Shown here one piece after another: positions 57,394 to 64,000 of a stretch of 64,000 nt of DNA; positions within the stretch are counted from its first letter, which is position 1, and each line of letters starts with the position of its first letter. Both the position numbers and the translations under genes were made by a program. The DNA lies in contig OY762428.1 in the NCBI GenBank assembly GCA_963665665.1, positions 3,328,001 through 3,392,000 on the forward strand, in the 5' to 3' direction. Under the pieces are notes generated by a model. That model was not told the origin of the DNA. It did no database searches and saw only the letters and a program-made list of their open reading frames with translations. This DNA is from Candidatus Kapaibacterium sp. (GTDB taxonomy: Bacteria; Bacteroidota; Ignavibacteria; Kapaibacteriales; UBA2268).

Positions 57394-58296
57394 ATGCGAT
57401 ACCTGGATCCTAAAAACGATTTAACTTTCAAGAAGATTTTCGGTCAGAATCCCTTGCTGCTGAAAAGCTTTCTGAATGCCCTGATGCCTTTCGAAGAGGA
57501 ACAATATATTGAAAGCCTTGAATATCTGAATCCTGAACTGGTTCCGGAAATACCGGTTTTAAAAAATTCCATTGTCGATGTTCGATGTGTTGACAACAAC
57601 GGAAGACAGTTCATAATTGAAATGCAGATGCTCTGGACAGACAGTTTCAAGTCCAGGGTACTCTTCAATGCTTCCAAGGCTTACGTCAGCCAGATAGACA
57701 AAGGTATTAAGTTCGAATCACTATGCCCTGTTTACTCGCTAAACCTGATAAATGACATATACCTGAAGGATGATCCCGATTATTATCACCACTACAGCAT
57801 AGTGAATATAGAAAACAGCGCAGAAAAGATTGACGGACTTGAGTTTATATTTATTGAACTCCCGAAATTCAAACCTACTTCAATTACAGAAAAAAGAATG
57901 GCCGTCCTCTGGCTAAGGTTTCTGACTGAATACGAAGAAAACCTTCCTGAAATACAGGAATTACGTGAAAGCGAAGAAATTCAGCAGGCCATCCTTATTC
58001 TCGATAAATTTTCTTATTCACCGGCTGAACTTGCTGCATACGAAAAGTACTGGGACGCTGTAAGAACCGAAAGGTCAATGCTTTCCGATTCTGAAAAGAA
58101 AGGAATTGAAAAAGGTATTAAATTGGGCGAAGCTATTGGAGAAGCAAGGGGGGAAGCCAGAGGTGAAAGAAACGAAGCCGAGAAAATAGCAGTTAAAAGC
58201 ATAGAAGCGGGGCTTCCTAATGAACTGATATGCAGGCTAACCGGACTGACAGCCGATGAATTAAGCGCACTGAAAATGAAAATGAAGAATATATAG
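57394..58296 (+). CDS. Rpn-family nuclease, copy 4 (300 aa)
   Basis: Same motifs as copy 1. Confidence 0.92.
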   Translation: MRYLDPKNDLTFKKIFGQNPLLLKSFLNALMPFEEEQYIESLEYLNPELVPEIPVLKNSIVDVRCVDNNGRQFIIEMQMLWTDSFKSRVLFNASKAYVSQIDKGIKFESLCPVYSLNLINDIYLKDDPDYYHHYSIVNIENSAEKIDGLEFIFIELPKFKPTSITEKRMAVLWLRFLTEYEENLPEIQELRESEEIQQAILILDKFSYSPAELAAYEKYWDAVRTERSMLSDSEKKGIEKGIKLGEAIGEARGEARGERNEAEKIAVKSIEAGLPNELICRLTGLTADELSALKMKMKNI

Positions 58297-58297
58297 A

Positions 58298-58410
58298 TTA
58301 CTTCACAACAACAAGTTTCTTCGAAATGCTTTTTCCTTCGTAATTTATCACAAGAAAATAAATACCCGAGGCAAAGGAGGATAAATCAATATTTTTAGAA
58401 TAGCTGCCAT
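58298..58410 (-). pseudogene. Remnant 3' end of a T9SS cargo gene
   Basis: GSYSKNIDLSSFASGIYFLVINYEGKSISKKLVVVK* is a typical CTD end with no gene body. Confidence 0.75.
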
Positions 58411-58667
58411 TCATAGTATTCGTAATCACCTTTAGCTTCGAAAGTAACCCGATCCAAAACCAAAATTGTATCTGTATAATAATTGAAATAAATCTTTTTG
58501 ATTTTATCATATCCATTAAAATATATATCAAAATCAGCAGTTACAGGTGTTTTGCCCTCGCAGGGATCCGGTTCAACCTTCACCGGGTCGTCCGGGCAGG
58601 CGGTAAGCAGCCACATCAGTGGCAAAACCACCGCGAAGTAATAATATCTGAATTTATTTGGTTTCAT
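58395..58667 (-). pseudogene. Truncated third copy of the tandem lipoprotein
   Basis: Same N-terminus as 58664..59440; breaks off after YEYYEWQL. Confidence 0.85.
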
Positions 58668-59440
58668 TGTTTCACTCCTATGAAAGTATATTCTTTCCTG
58701 TCGTCGTAAGGGCCGGCTTCGTAGTTTACAATAAGCGTCTTATTATCCGCCTGGAGTTCGGCATAGCCGTCAGGCGACTGACATCCGTAACTATAGCAAT
58801 AATCGCTTTTCATAATCGCATATTTATTCAGCCAGCTAATGCTTACAATATTTCCATTGATATTTTCAGGCATAAAAAAACCTCTGTTAATATTGTAAAT
58901 TATCAGGCCTTTAAGCATACCTTCATATTTGACATCAACCCTAAATGTATCAAGAGTATCAGAAGTATGATAACCAAGATAGGAACCAATAATCGCAGCA
59001 GAGTCCAATTCAACTACTGTTATTGTTTTATATACGGTGTCAATTCCGTCGTCGGCGGGGAAGCATAATGTATCAGGCGGATTTTTAACAATAAGCCGCA
59101 TTTTTAATTCGCCCCAGGCTTCTTTGAACTGGAAAATTTCGATTTTATCATTATATATTGTAGGATCATCGCCGAGCTGCCATTCATAGTATTCGTAATC
59201 GCCTTTGGCTTCGAAAGTAATACGATTATAAACCAAAGCAGTATCTGTATGATACTTAAAATAACTCTTTTCAATAACATCATAAGCTATGGTGGAAATA
59301 TCAAAATCAGCAGTTACAGGTGTTTTACCCTCGCATGGGTCCGGTTCAACCTTCACCGGGTCGTCCGGGCAGGCGGTAAGCAGCCACATCAGTGGCAAAA
59401 CCACCGCGAAGTAATAATATCTGAATTTATTTGGTTTCAT
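58664..59440 (-). CDS. Lipoprotein with PKD-like domain, copy 2
   Basis: Lipobox LTAC; VTADF, YEWQLGD; paralogue of 59437..60216. Confidence 0.85.
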   Translation of the reverse strand: MKPNKFRYYYFAVVLPLMWLLTACPDDPVKVEPDPCEGKTPVTADFDISTIAYDVIEKSYFKYHTDTALVYNRITFEAKGDYEYYEWQLGDDPTIYNDKIEIFQFKEAWGELKMRLIVKNPPDTLCFPADDGIDTVYKTITVVELDSAAIIGSYLGYHTSDTLDTFRVDVKYEGMLKGLIIYNINRGFFMPENINGNIVSISWLNKYAIMKSDYCYSYGCQSPDGYAELQADNKTLIVNYEAGPYDDRKEYTFIGVKQ

Positions 59441-60216
59441 TGTTTCACTCCTATGAAAGTATATTCTTTCCTGTCGTCGTATGGGCCGGCCTCGTAGTTT
59501 ACAATAAGTGTTTTATTATCCTCCCGGAGTTCGGCATATCCGTCGGGTGACTGGCTTCCGAAACCATAACAGTAATCGCTTTTCATAATCGCATATTTAT
59601 TTTCCCAACGAATCTGAACAATATTTCCATTGATATTCTCAGGTAAATGAAAACCCCGATTAATGTTGTAAAATACAAGCCCCCTATCCATACCTTCATA
59701 TTTGACATCAACCCTAAATGTATCAAGAGTATCAGAAGTATGATAGCCGATATAGGAACCAATAATCGCGGCTGAATCCCTTTCAATAACTGTTATTGTT
59801 TTGTAAACTGTATCAATTCCGTCGTCATCGGGAAAGCATAATGTATCAGGCGGATTTTTTACAATTAGCCGCATTTTTAATTCACCCCAGGGATTTTTAA
59901 ATCTAAATAATTGTTGATCTCCGGTATAAATTGTGGGATCATCTCCGAGCTGCCACTCGTAGTACTCGTAATCGCCTTTTGCTTCAAAAATAACATAATT
60001 TGATTTTAAAACTGTATCGCTATGATAATAAAAGTTGGATTTACTAATAGCATCATACATTTTCATATATATATCAAAATCAGCAGTTACAGGTGTTTTA
60101 CCCTCGCAGGGATCCGGTTCAACCTTCACCGGGTCGTCCGGGCAGGCGGTAAGGCTGAACATGAGAATAGAAAATAATAATATCTTAAAAATATTTTTGG
60201 TATCGGATAAAAACAT
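59437..60216 (-). CDS. Lipoprotein with PKD-like domain, copy 1
   Basis: Lipobox LTAC; GAGG SD; ATGA overlap with the next copy. Confidence 0.85.
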   Translation of the reverse strand: MFLSDTKNIFKILLFSILMFSLTACPDDPVKVEPDPCEGKTPVTADFDIYMKMYDAISKSNFYYHSDTVLKSNYVIFEAKGDYEYYEWQLGDDPTIYTGDQQLFRFKNPWGELKMRLIVKNPPDTLCFPDDDGIDTVYKTITVIERDSAAIIGSYIGYHTSDTLDTFRVDVKYEGMDRGLVFYNINRGFHLPENINGNIVQIRWENKYAIMKSDYCYGFGSQSPDGYAELREDNKTLIVNYEAGPYDDRKEYTFIGVKQ

Positions 60217-60499
60217 AAAATCCTCAAAAAATTAATGATCAAAACATATCAAATTCCTCAATCCGAAATTGAATGAATTAATAAGCGGGATCCCCGGCAT
60301 TCCCTCAAAACCATTAGTACCAATTGAGATATTAACAGCTACATGTAAGTTAAAGATTTTTATTTTAATAATCAAGAGCCTGGTAAAATAAATTCACTAT
60401 ATTACTCCCGGGTTGTAATCGAAATTACTACACCTAAGAAATAAGATATCTGAAAGGGCCAGAGCTTCATAATTCCAAAGTAGAACTTTGCATGAAATA

Positions 60500-60528
60500 C
60501 TCCTTCCCAAGCCCCGCTTGGGAAGGAG
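60500..60528. repeat. Perfect 13-bp-stem hairpin
   Basis: CTCCTTCCCAAGC CCC GCTTGGGAAGGAG. Confidence 0.75.
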
Positions 60529-60589
60529 GGGAAACTCCCTCTCCAGCACTCTCCCTCCATTCTTCCACTTTAATGAATCGAATAATTTC

Positions 60590-60967
60590 CTTGTTTCAAT
60601 GCTGTTTTGAACCAGAATCCTGATGTTTGGGCTAATCGCTTTGCTGTCGGGGCTTTAAACTGCTATGTCCGGAGGTATTGAAGCATTGTTTGGCCTTATT
60701 GTAGTGAAATCCGGCCTAATTGCTTGCTTGTTCCGCCTTACTGCTCACTTGTTCTGCCTTATTGCTTGCTTGTTCCGCCTTACTGCTCACTTGTTCTGCC
60801 CTATTGCTTGCTTGTTCTGCCTCATTGATGTCTTGTTCCGCTTCATTGCTCACTTGTTATGCCTCATTGATGTCTTGTTTCGCTTCATTACTTGCTTGTT
60901 CCGCCTTATTGAAGTCTTGTTCTGCTTCATTGCTTGCTTGTTCCGCCTCGTTGCTTGCTTGTTTGGC
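60590..60967 (-). repeat. 21-bp tandem array, left (12 conserved units at 60716-60967 plus ~6 degenerate)
   Basis: Minus-strand unit GCRGAACAAG-NNNN-CAAT-NNN. Confidence 0.92.
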
Positions 60968-60997
60968 ATTGAAATCCCAAAGGTAGAGATGAATTAA

Positions 60998-61490
60998 GTC
61001 TTTAGATATAACTAATAATCAAATATATAGCCCAAAATATTAAATATTATACTAATTTTAATAAATATATAGTATTTATAATAATTTATATAATATATCC
61101 AAGTCTTAATATAGTTCATCTAACAAAACTTTTTATATAAATAACTAAATATCTTATACATATAATTAAATAATTGGTATGATTTATTAAATTAGTATTA
61201 TAGACTATTAAATATTAGTATTAACCTATTAATTAATCAGTATATCTAATTTGTTAAAACAATTAAATATATACTTGGATACTCAATATATTTTATAAAA
61301 GAAGAAAGAGAATTTATAAGAAATAGTGATTAATGTCTTGTATAAATTATTTATTTGATTAGTTATATTATTAATATTGTAATTCTATATAATTATTTAA
61401 TAATTCAATAAATATATTTACTACAAATACTTAAATATTTACTAATTCTTATGATATATTTTATTATTCAAGTATTATAAATTATTCAAT
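60998..61490. other. Extremely AT-rich non-coding core
   Basis: Hand count of about 60 G+C in the 460 nt from 61021 to 61480 (~13% GC); no ORF. Confidence 0.9.
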
Positions 61491-61536
61491 CAGCAAAATA
61501 TTTCGGATTCCAACGCTACACAAGCAATCATTACCA

Positions 61537-62444
61537 CCGACCAAGGCAGCAATGACTCCGACCCCTCCCAAACCCTCCCCGAAGGAGAGGGCTTTGAAGA
61601 AGAATAAAGCAACAATAGAATCAAACATTGGTTCTTTGCTTTCGAACATTGGTGCATTGACTCCAACCAAGGCAGCAATAAAATCAAACATCGGTGCAAT
61701 GGCGTCAAACAAGGCGGCAATAACTTAAAACATCTATGCAATAACTCCGACCCCTCCCAAACCCTCCCCGAAGGAGAGGGCTTTGAAGAAGAATAAAGCA
61801 GCAATAGAATAAACCATTGGTTCTTTGCTTTTGACCAAGGCAGCAATGACTTCGACCAAGGCAGCAATGACTCCGACCCCTCCCAAACCCTCCCCGAAGG
61901 AGAGGGCTTTGAAGTAAAACAAGGCAGCAATAGAATAAACCATTGGTTCTTTGCTTCCGAACAAGGCAACAATGGTTTAGACCAAGGCGGCAATAACTTC
62001 AAACATCTATGCAATGACTCCGACCCCTCCCAAACCCTCCCCGAAGGAGAGGGCTTTGAAGAAGAATAAAGCAGCAATAGAATAAACCATTGGTTCTTTG
62101 CTTCCGACCAAGGCAGCAATTGAATAAAACATTTGTGCAATAGCGTCGACCATTGGTACATTGCTTTCGATACTTCCTACCTCCTCCCGCCCCCCTCCTT
62201 CGGAAGGAGGGGGAGTTAATTCTATGTTATTTAACTTCTTATCCCCTCCTAAAGTAGGAGGGGAATACAGGGGTGGTTTTCTTGCTTTGATTTGGAACAA
62301 GGCGTTATTATCTTCAAACAAAGCAGCAATAACTTCGAACAAGGCGGCAATGGCGTCAAACAAGGCAGCAATTGAATAAAACATTAGTGCAATGACTCCG
62401 ACCCCTCCCAAACCCTCCCCGAAGGAGAGGGCTTTGAAGAAGAA
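61537..62444 (+). repeat. 21-bp tandem array, right, with five identical 42-bp hairpin inserts and one 126-bp insert
   Basis: Units like TCGAACAAGGCGGCAATGGCG; inserts start at 61558, 61747, 61873, 62020, 62398; 126-bp insert at 62167-62292. Confidence 0.92.
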
Positions 62445-62521
62445 TGAACGGCTTCCTTTAAAAAAAACAGCGATTTAAGGTGAAATAATCTTAACTTGCA
62501 AAAAATCAAAAGGAGCATCAA

Positions 62522-62809
62522 ATGGCAAACAAACGAAGAAATTACAGTTCAAAATTCAAAATGCAGGTAGCCCTGGAGGCAGTCCAAGAGAGAAAAACAA
62601 TAACCGAGCTGGCATCGGAGTACGGGGTTCATCCAAACCAGATAAGCATGTGGAAAAAGCATTTAAAAGAAAGTGAAAAGGAAGTATTTGAAAACAAGCG
62701 TGGGCCAGGGAAGAATAAAAAAGAAAAAGACGAATCAGTATTATATGAAGAAATAGGCCGGCTAAAAATTGAATTAGACTGGTTAAAAAAAAAATTGGGA
62801 CGTGAGTAA
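62522..62809 (+). CDS. IS3 transposase OrfA (HTH)
   Basis: RRNYSSKFK.QVALEA...ELASEYGVHPNQI..WKK...ELDWLKKK; AAGGAG SD. Confidence 0.92.
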   Translation: MANKRRNYSSKFKMQVALEAVQERKTITELASEYGVHPNQISMWKKHLKESEKEVFENKRGPGKNKKEKDESVLYEEIGRLKIELDWLKKKLGRE

Positions 62810-63647
62810 AGAAGAACGCAGGAAGATGGTAGATGCTGATAATAAAGAAATTAGCATAAGCCGGCAGTGCGAGCTTTTGGGTATTAGCAGGAGCTGTTAT
62901 TATTACAAACCCAAGGGTGAAAGTGAAGCAAATATTCTATATATGAAGCTGATCAAAGAACAATTCGCGATTACTCCATTTTATGGAGCCAGAAAAATGA
63001 CAGCACACTTACGTTCTTTGGGATACCATGTTAACTATAAACGAATCAGGCGATTAATGAAATTATTGGGACTTCGGGCAATATATCCCCAACCGGACAC
63101 GAGCAAACCGAACAAGGAGCACAAAATTTATCCATACCTGTTGAGGGATATGAAAATAAGTCGTCCGGATCAGGTTTGGAGCCTGGATATAACATATATT
63201 CCGATGCGTAAAGGATTTATGTATCTTATAGCAATTATAGATGTTTATAGCAGGTATATCGTCGACTGGGAATTATCGAATAACCTTGAGAAGGAGTTCT
63301 GCATAGATACAATAAAAAGGTCTTTGAAAACCAGGAAACCGGAAATAACAAACACGGATCAGGGCAGTCAGTTCACGAGCAATGATTTTGTGAAAACGAT
63401 TCTGGATGCTGATGTTAAGGTAAGCATGGACGGCAAGGGCCGCGCCTTGGACAATGTTTACATAGAACGCTTCTGGCGGAGCTTTAAATACGAAGACCTG
63501 TATCTGAAGTCTTACGAAGACGGAAAAGAGCTCTATGGCGGTATAAAGGCTTATGTCGATTGGTATAACAACACGAGGCCGCACGCAGGAATTGAATACC
63601 AGATTCCGGCTGAAAAATATATGAACGAACAGCGGTTCGTTAATTGA
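62802..63647 (+). CDS. IS3 transposase OrfB (DDE integrase core)
   Basis: WSLDITY, IDVYSR, NTDQGSQF, DNVYIERFW. Confidence 0.95.
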   Translation: MSKEERRKMVDADNKEISISRQCELLGISRSCYYYKPKGESEANILYMKLIKEQFAITPFYGARKMTAHLRSLGYHVNYKRIRRLMKLLGLRAIYPQPDTSKPNKEHKIYPYLLRDMKISRPDQVWSLDITYIPMRKGFMYLIAIIDVYSRYIVDWELSNNLEKEFCIDTIKRSLKTRKPEITNTDQGSQFTSNDFVKTILDADVKVSMDGKGRALDNVYIERFWRSFKYEDLYLKSYEDGKELYGGIKAYVDWYNNTRPHAGIEYQIPAEKYMNEQRFVN

Positions 63648-63887
63648 AAACTTTGTTGGAAAAGTGAAAAAATGCAATCCGGTAAGCAATTGATAAAAAA
63701 AGAAATAGAAAGGAGAGTGAAAGTTATCCACAATTTCCAGGTTGTTAACAAAAAGAAAAAAAAGTAGCAAAAAAAAGAAAAATTAATATTATTACATATT
63801 TTTTTCTTATTTTATTAGAGAAGAAGTATAGATTAATAAACACCATAAACTATACTTTTATTTGTCTAAGCAATAGGGAGCATTTCA

Positions 63888-63950
63888 GAATAAAGCAGCA
63901 ATGACTTAGAACATTAGTGCATTGCCTTCGACCCCTCCAACCTTCCCCCG
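63888..63950 (+). repeat. Continuation of the 21-bp array beyond the IS
   Basis: TAAAGCAGCAATGACT / TAGAACATTAGTGCATTGCCT / degenerate hairpin start. Confidence 0.8.
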
Positions 63951-64000
63951 ACCGCATCTTTCATACATTATCTGCAAAGTAAGATGGATTCTTCAGTCGC

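Follow-up and report, generated by a model that had tools for sequence, protein, structure and literature searches.

A tandem-repeat array of Candidatus Kapaibacterium sp. and the single 21-nucleotide register of a dispersed composite element

Background

The closest known system is BrickBuilt of Porphyromonas gingivalis, described (Klein et al. 2015, PMC4596501) as a minisatellite-containing MITE that occurs in 19 copies, is intergenic and restricted to its species, and is built of a leader, a spacer-free tandem array of 23-nt units and a tail. Its array is single and direct, its short terminal inverted repeats match those of the IS5 family, and its indels amount to 0-6% (PMC4596501).

The element that we describe here, from a genome of Candidatus Kapaibacterium sp., was likewise found to be multi-copy, intergenic and apparently non-coding, with a leader and a tail around a spacer-free array. 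The two are alike in being dispersed, always intergenic, species-restricted and probably without coding function, in having a copy number in the tens, in belonging to a Bacteroidota lineage, and in combining a leader and a tail with an array of variable copy number whose units are about two helical turns long (23 nt in BrickBuilt and 21 nt here). They differ in that BrickBuilt has a single direct array, whereas the element here has two inverted arrays, an optional 567-bp core and hairpin modules; in that BrickBuilt has IS5-like terminal repeats, whereas the element here is without identified terminal repeats or parent transposase; and in that the arrays here have practically no indels, compared with the 0-6% of BrickBuilt.

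Foldback transposons of Drosophila have long inverted arms made of short tandem repeats in variable number, with or without a central segment. The element here shares with them the inverted tandem-repeat arms and the optional central non-repeated segment, but those transposons are eukaryotic, and the arms here, in an element of only putative mobility, are no more than about 70% complementary (15 of 21 positions, aligned by eye). In REP and BIME mosaics and in REPIN-RAYT systems, GC-rich palindromic hairpins, often in inverted pairs, pile up intergenically at the 3' ends of genes. We take the 42-nt and 126-nt modules described below to belong to REP/BIME-like hairpin families; they too have free copies, as dispersed hairpins, but REP mosaics are not embedded in a minisatellite of fixed period, as the modules here are. 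The palindromic elements of Rickettsia, which are in-frame passengers within coding sequence, and the intergenic mosaics of Neisseria are further classes for comparison.

Results and discussion

The array of the window

We analysed a window of 64,000 nucleotides from a genome that forms a single contig of 5.46 Mb with 38.6% G+C. The original prediction had described, between positions 61537 and 62439, an array of 21-bp units carrying five identical 42-bp inserts and a different, double-hairpin insert of 126 bp, all of them keeping one phase. This description was borne out by the sequence. An exact search of the 64-kb window found the 42-mer exactly five times, always on the plus strand, at 61558, 61747, 61873, 62020 and 62398; the gaps between inserts are of 7, 4, 5 and 5 + 5 units; the double-hairpin insert at 62167-62292 measures 126 nt; and the array, laid out in 21-nt rows from 61537, keeps its phase to 62439. 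The features of the locus are the following, with the strand given where one applies.

60500-60528, minus strand: GC-rich hairpin of 13 pairs from a terminator-like scan, just upstream of the element; a dispersed genomic hairpin repeat
60572-60709: leader of the composite element, one of 53 copies
60714-60963: left arm, D-type, with 11.9 units of 21 nt in the opposite orientation to the right arm
60970-61536: AT-rich core of 567 bp (27 x 21), weakly 21-periodic, with TRF rows at 61133 and 61380
61537-62444: right arm, a B-type array of 21-nt units with modules, interrupted inside a unit by an insertion sequence
61558-61599: first copy of the 42-nt single-hairpin module, equal to the left half of a palindromic element with two hairpins
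61747-61788: 42-nt module, copy 2, exact match
61873-61914: 42-nt module, copy 3, exact match
62020-62061: 42-nt module, copy 4, exact match
62167-62292: 126-nt double-hairpin module, with two perfect 10-bp stems and outer pairing
62398-62439: 42-nt module, copy 5, exact match
62445-63887, plus strand: IS3-family insertion sequence of 1443 bp, with orfA (HTH_Tnp_1) and orfB (rve)
63888-63927: remainder of the right arm after the insertion sequence, being the rest of the cut unit and one whole unit
63928-64000: terminal hairpin module, degenerate, and tail, which continue beyond the window; the same end is found at locus 1462795

The units of the array abut without spacers, and a CRISPR array is ruled out on that ground. 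Besides periods of 21 and 42, TRF reported two of higher order, one of 126 (2.1 copies, 89% matches) and one of 147 (2.0 copies, 88%), with 0% indels throughout, which indicates that part of the local pattern is due to block duplication of module plus units. The IS3-family element ends in TG...CA and lies between duplicated GAA triplets at 62442-62444 and 63888-63890, and a high-depth contig of sequencing reads, 1443 nt long, ends at 62445. Together with the duplication it adds 1446 bases to the array, which is not a multiple of 21; as had been proposed, excising it with one GAA regenerates a 21-nt unit, after which one more whole unit follows. The supposed invariance of the inserts held within the window array and failed genome-wide, where the 73 single-hairpin modules that we counted comprise 29 distinct sequences.

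One register across a dispersed composite element

Genome-wide, TRF returned 861 rows, with period 21 in 288, period 42 in 83 and period 63 in 56. The 138-nt leader at 60572-60709 occurs in 53 genomic copies of 83-100% identity, and sequence conservation reaches about 100 nt further upstream. On the 3' side, each of the 53 leaders is followed first by an array of A- or D-type units and next by one of B-type units; the two abut in 39 of the loci, while in the other 14, the window locus included, the AT-rich core stands between them. Measured from the leader start, the A/D arrays lie at phase 12 wherever they were scored (46/53 loci) and the first B units at phase 20 in every locus (53/53). In loci without the core, the last A/D unit and the first B unit lie 8 or 29 nt apart; in loci with it they lie 575 nt apart, plus or minus whole units, so that the core amounts to 567 nt, or 27 x 21; it is itself weakly 21-periodic in the TRF analysis. 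Because the reverse complements of A and D units resemble B units (15/21 positions in an alignment made by eye), the left arm, formed by the leader and the A/D array, is inverted relative to the right arm. The leader is composed of degenerate 21-nt units oriented like the left arm, and the B-unit matrix scores the reverse complement of the leader end as unit-like.

Counted from the leader to the last unit, the 53 loci together cover 62.5 kb, which is 1.14% of the genome. In many of them the last double hairpin is succeeded by a recurrent tail, and a few leaderless arrays exist beyond these copies, among them the locus at 3529456-3530640, where inverted B arrays of 23 and 29 units flank an AT-rich core. 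This locus is the most symmetric member of the family. In the four loci of the 53 on which folding was tried, ViennaRNA folds the left arm onto the right arm over the whole length on both strands (4/4), with z values for the arm-to-arm folding that run from -3.7 to -17.2 over both strands against dinucleotide shuffles. One near-identical pair of loci that we examined is a segmental duplication including part of a neighbouring gene. The single candidate end motif that was tried occurs on the left side of 21/53 loci, on the right side of 8/53 and on both sides of 4/53, and the flanking 'SRM' hairpin halves were rejected as terminal repeats, being inconsistent across loci. Dispersed inverted hairpin pairs (60480-60570 and 63950-64000 in the window) stand ahead of the leader in many loci and behind the tail in some, and are not consistent boundaries of the element.

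Searching the genome with a unit matrix derived from the units of the window gave about 2400 unit matches. Among consecutive matches at most 600 bp apart, 1511 lie exactly 21 nt apart and one lies 16 nt apart, with no spacing at all of 18-20 or 22-24 nt, and 224 of the 252 non-adjacent consecutive pairs within the same distance are spaced by multiples of 21. This pattern is beyond chance. Neighbouring units nevertheless differ at a mean of 5.2 of their 21 positions, yet only one of the 1512 close spacings deviates from 21. A single register runs from the leader to the last unit in 45 of the 53 loci.

The same holds for the modules. Our census within the 53 loci comprised the modules with both ends, 73 of the single-hairpin and 51 of the double-hairpin kind, and left out 5 single and 22 double modules without the right-end motif, mostly terminal copies. 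Single-hairpin modules measure 42 nt in 66 cases, 43 nt in one, 58 nt in three, 59 nt in one and 75 nt in two; double-hairpin modules measure 126 nt in 48 cases, the rest being one of 125 nt, one of 127 nt and a composite of 259 nt. The module starts in unit phase in 72/73 of the former and 47/51 of the latter. The proposal that insert lengths in other arrays should also be multiples of 21 could be followed within this genome only, in paralogous loci, since no homologous arrays were found elsewhere, and there it agreed with the lengths just given (66/73 at 42 nt and 48/51 at 126 nt). Flanking contexts fall into 52 different classes for the single-hairpin and 42 for the double-hairpin modules, so that spread by block duplication alone is not established.

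The 21-nt grid is thus real and unusual, and it spans the leader, both inverted arms, the AT-rich core and the foreign hairpin modules of one multi-copy element. The window array is the right arm of one of 53 dispersed, apparently non-coding composite elements of fold-back type.

The register is also kept by a second family. An unrelated pair of 21-nt units, types F and E, occupies 29 further loci (235459-236560 is an example); wherever a locus holds both types (12/12), the F array leads into the E array in a single register, and about 250 nt of flank on each side of the F/E loci lie on the same 21-nt grid. Translation of one locus of this family gave no consistent ORF.

Origin of the hairpin modules

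Away from the arrays, the single-hairpin sequence forms the left half of a palindrome of two hairpins with GACC...GGTC ends, whose six full free copies measure 74, 77, 78, 78, 93 and 99 nt, the copies of 93 and 99 nt carrying nested inserts. The 42-mer of the arrays corresponds to this left half; its first 6 nt are those of the unit, and it passes into the next unit by way of the loop sequence of the free palindrome. Free copies of the roughly 100-nt core of the double hairpin are also found elsewhere in the genome, with left flanks that do not belong to arrays. Among copies of the 126-nt module the loops vary and the stems are mostly kept, some copies altering one arm without compensation. 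Predicted folding energies are -13.1 / -21.6 kcal/mol for the 42-mer and -49.2 / -50.9 kcal/mol for the 126-mer.

The hairpin sequences reach beyond this genome. A pattern of 30 nt for the core of the single hairpin, with 28 fixed bases (61564-61593 in the window), is identical in 14 stretches of other genomes, whose carriers include Prolixibacteraceae and Chitinophagaceae (Bacteroidota), Acidimicrobiia and Vogelbacteria MAGs, and the aligned cross-genome copies share 31 invariant columns. In one other genome the core sits in a 75-nt gap between co-directional ORFs, and TRF found no 21-nt array beside it at either of the two loci scanned among the 14. The modules are embedded pieces of common intergenic hairpin repeats and not independent insertions. 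The similarity of the modules and the core to the units in register is weak, with offset 0 ranking 3rd, 3rd and 4th of 21 (shuffle p of 0.004, 0.07 and 0.0045), and suggests, without proving it, that the AT-rich core and the second half of the 42-mer arose in situ from units.

No enzyme linked to the 42-nt or 126-nt hairpins was found in the genome. A gene for a 155-aa protein of the Y1_Tnp family (IS200/RAYT-like), at 1821817-1822161, has another hairpin-repeat family on both sides, and an identification of the modules as REP/REPIN sequences with their RAYT was rejected on this account, the repeat-flanked gene at 1.82 Mb carrying a different hairpin family; the second Y1 transposase match lies inside an open frame of 1399 aa.

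Breaks of the register

The register is broken in 8 of the 53 loci, and in six of these eight the break is due to +16, +17, +33 or +1 nt inside modules, the modules of odd length containing either nested palindromes of 16 and 17 nt within the 42-mer or single-base changes in the hairpin. Past a break the array continues for 1 to 20 units in the shifted phase, and none of the eight breaks is compensated. All the later insertions observed are off the grid (+16, +17, +33, +1 and -1 nt, and the 1443+3 bp of the insertion sequence), and having been left uncorrected they speak against a ruler mechanism.

Mobile sequences have also entered the ends of the arrays. An insertion sequence with a 370-aa DDE_Tnp_1 transposase occupies the same point of the GC-rich hairpin stem that ends four arrays, and a tyrosine-integrase gene (with Arm-DNA-bind_5, SAM-like and catalytic domains) directly follows a truncated terminal hairpin module at two loci. 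Their positions are as follows.

Genome contig, about 997100, 2158350, 2211180 and 2484500: insertions of the DDE_Tnp_1 insertion sequence at array ends
Genome contig, about 98290-99800 and about 626000: tyrosine-integrase element, with the same AT-rich leader at both

The latter may be an integrative element that uses the terminal hairpin as a candidate attachment site. Copies of the hairpin family that flanks the Y1_Tnp gene are inserted in the first hairpin of several terminal 126-nt modules. None of the insertions by the DDE_Tnp_1 element, the integrase element or the Y1_Tnp-linked hairpin family fits the grid.

History or constraint on length

The best explanation overall, which we judge to have an even chance of being right, is that of a lineage-restricted, non-coding, fold-back, minisatellite-bearing composite of MITE-like nature on one 21-nt lattice. 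Under this explanation, pieces of two dispersed hairpin-element families would have been captured rarely, once or a few times, and would have been fused to units at the common 6-nt start. Whole-unit slippage or unequal exchange would then have copied the modules along with the units beside them, and the modules would have spread further as the whole element reached new loci. The register would persist because the arrays change almost only by whole units, and would be neither enforced at insertion nor restored after later breaks. Most likely the element would be selfish or neutral DNA tolerated at the 3' ends of genes, and it may perhaps act as a putative bidirectional structural barrier. Neither a mobilising enzyme for it nor target duplications or terminal inverted repeats could be identified.

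This explanation has weak points. The lengths of 42, 126 and 567 nt are all multiples of 21, whereas those of the free hairpin copies are not, and three such multiples would arise by chance about once in 9000 if they were independent and of random length. Moreover, the strongly diverged leader is still on the grid, and the diverged parts are almost without indels. That diverged units and leader keep the grid looks like a length constraint, beyond mutational bias, and because the exact 42 and 126 nt, the 567-nt core and the scarcity of indels are left unaccounted for, a real constraint on length keeps some probability, though a rather low one. The original prediction had offered either selection on a 21-bp register or a ruler-like mechanism of insertion. 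Its first part gains some plausibility, inasmuch as a rule that holds in 53 loci, for three kinds of module, the leader and the AT-rich core, makes a length constraint or bias plausible; a ruler found no support, the modules being pieces of hairpin elements whose free copies measure 74-78 and about 100 nt and the later insertions lying off the grid. The caution that came with the prediction, concerning the independence of the inserts, was justified in substance, as the rule rests on no more than about two or three module types that are independent.

An alternative to which we assign a rather low probability is that the 21-nt lattice is actively selected for a periodic reader, be it a protein filament, a DNA shape of two helical turns or the fold-back duplex, and that embedded DNA must measure a multiple of 21 to keep the downstream units phased. 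Several observations speak for it: all three kinds of module are multiples of 21, the strongly diverged leader and the AT core keep to the grid, and the units are almost without indels despite 25% divergence. The unrelated 21-nt family of 29 loci, with its one register in 12/12 loci and its flanks on the grid, the dominance of period 21 among the tandem repeats of the genome (288/861 TRF rows) and the coincidence of the most conserved unit positions in both arms (in an alignment made partly by eye) point in the same direction. However, the breaks in 8/53 loci went uncorrected, with up to 20 more units downstream, the A/T content of the unit consensus is without a dominant 10.5-nt harmonic, no candidate gene for a binding protein recurs beside the loci, and the loci are placed like tolerated junk, at the 3' ends of genes. 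Intrinsic curvature was rejected by the same missing harmonic.

In a more general form, and equally doubtful in our judgement, the 21-nt period would be a hard rule, set by a factor that reads or makes DNA two helical turns at a time; a cooperative DNA-binding filament, or slippage or repair with a fixed step, are candidates. Under such a rule the units (A, D, B, AT core, leader and F/E) could drift to almost any sequence, and foreign hairpins would survive in arrays only if trimmed or padded to multiples of 21.

About 1% of this genome is one repeat family on an exact 21-nt grid, with an unrelated second family on the same grid; sequence drifts freely while length is essentially fixed, and an AT-rich core and captured hairpins fit as well. 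If history and whole-unit slippage are all that is behind this, BrickBuilt-type elements gain a well-documented relative; an active constraint on length would imply a hitherto unknown periodic reader of bacterial DNA, and the hard rule, if true, a general and undescribed principle of the biology of bacterial minisatellites. In practice, the loci change fast and can mark strains, they trap mobile elements, and they give rise to spurious gene calls.

Coding potential and transcripts

That the arrays code for protein is possible but unlikely. In its most specific form, which we regard as improbable, this alternative states that the minus strand encodes small heptad-repeat proteins, with one ORF in the B array (V-I-A-A-L-V-E) and one in the A/D array (K-V-K-Q-V-L-S), the hairpins being in-frame passengers and multiples of seven codons preserving the heptad phase. 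In the copies translated, both hairpin modules are indeed open in the minus-strand frame of the B heptads, and the stop of the B frame overlaps the ATG of the A frame in both junction variants. The frame of the A array matches 76 Pfam families of coiled-coil type at E<=0.1, the best being DUF745 (41.3 bits against a cut-off of 33.3). Two minus-strand frames show a mild excess of synonymous-type variation (ratios of 1.40, 1.53 and 2.17), which peaks in the two frames proposed; the depletion of stop codons relative to column shuffles is seen in two frames at once and is not decisive. Gene callers have annotated such ORFs, in that seven database proteins translate arrays of this kind, three from this genome and four from other contigs, but none of the 7/7 has a name.

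Against this reading, four of the six frames are open over the arrays merely because the units have no stop codons, and stops do occur in every frame, at 0.025-0.97 per unit, the B frame still having 46 in 1623 units. The best-looking minus-strand frame of the window is split into ORFs of 76, 76 and 134 aa. The variability of A, D and B units is without 3-periodicity (permutation p of 0.24-0.75), and in one codon the position that should wobble hardly changes (entropy 0.03), although the second position varies (0.60). Conservation does not extend to the start codon; the leader, the best-conserved part, would stay untranslated, with stops in all six frames at the one locus translated and no 3-periodicity in its variation; and perfect stems with free loops in the hairpins are a signature of the DNA or RNA level. 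The stops in every frame, the lack of 3-periodicity and the broken window copy speak against a gene for a heptad-repeat (coiled-coil) protein.

The suggestion that the array yields a long precursor RNA whose hairpins are processing sites freeing small RNAs of variable unit strings is the least probable of all, for although the hairpins are predicted to be stable at the energies given above, a sigma-70-like motif stands at 4/5 of the 42-mer/unit junctions of the window and BrickBuilt segments are reported to show promoter activity (PMC4596501), no Rfam family matches, unrelated genomes that lack the arrays carry this hairpin as an ordinary intergenic one, the element is predicted to fold back on itself and not to expose unit strings, and the folding energy favours no strand consistently. 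The Rfam searches gave no match in the window and, in three other loci, only a miRNA match at chance level. The sigma-70-like motif (TTGAAG, 16 nt, TAGAAT, plus strand) lies at 61594-61621, 61783-61810, 61909-61936 and 62056-62083, while the fifth junction, cut by the insertion sequence, is without it; the motif does no more than match the consensus, and the promoters of this organism may be of another type.

Genomic context and distribution

By a crude ORF call the element is intergenic, and it is restricted in host range. With flanking ORFs taken as the nearest of at least 120 aa in that call, 49 loci have ORFs on both sides, 19 of these pairs being convergent, 26 tandem and 4 divergent. No neighbouring gene family recurs beside the loci, and no match to the element was found in plasmid and phage sequences; an array of iteron or centromere-like type, as on a replicon, was rejected for these two reasons. 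A bias between replichores, suggested initially by 37/53 loci, vanished when origin and terminus were placed by GC skew (22 co-oriented and 31 anti-oriented loci).

A search of 40 relatives from the family and the order did not find the leader, the sole match being a stray of 32 nt, and the two-unit pattern occurs 407 times in its own genome as against one stray occurrence in 400 other genomes of the phylum. As repeats are often lost from draft genomes, these results mean 'not found' and not 'absent'. A protein-guided scan of metagenome contigs and genome contigs gave no homologues of the array, the double-hairpin pattern had 0 matches in metagenome contigs, and the hairpin pattern had 0 matches in viral contigs. 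A search of the published literature gave no description of this element or of the repeats of this organism.

Upstream of the element, three tandem paralogous lipoprotein-like ORFs lie on the minus strand at 58395-60216 of the window, the first of them cut short, with a near-identical signal and lipobox start; the one of the three that was scanned, at 59437-60216, had no Pfam match. They are adjoined, at 57394-58296 on the plus strand, by a 'transposase' gene of the PD-(D/E)XK nuclease family (PDDEXK_2).
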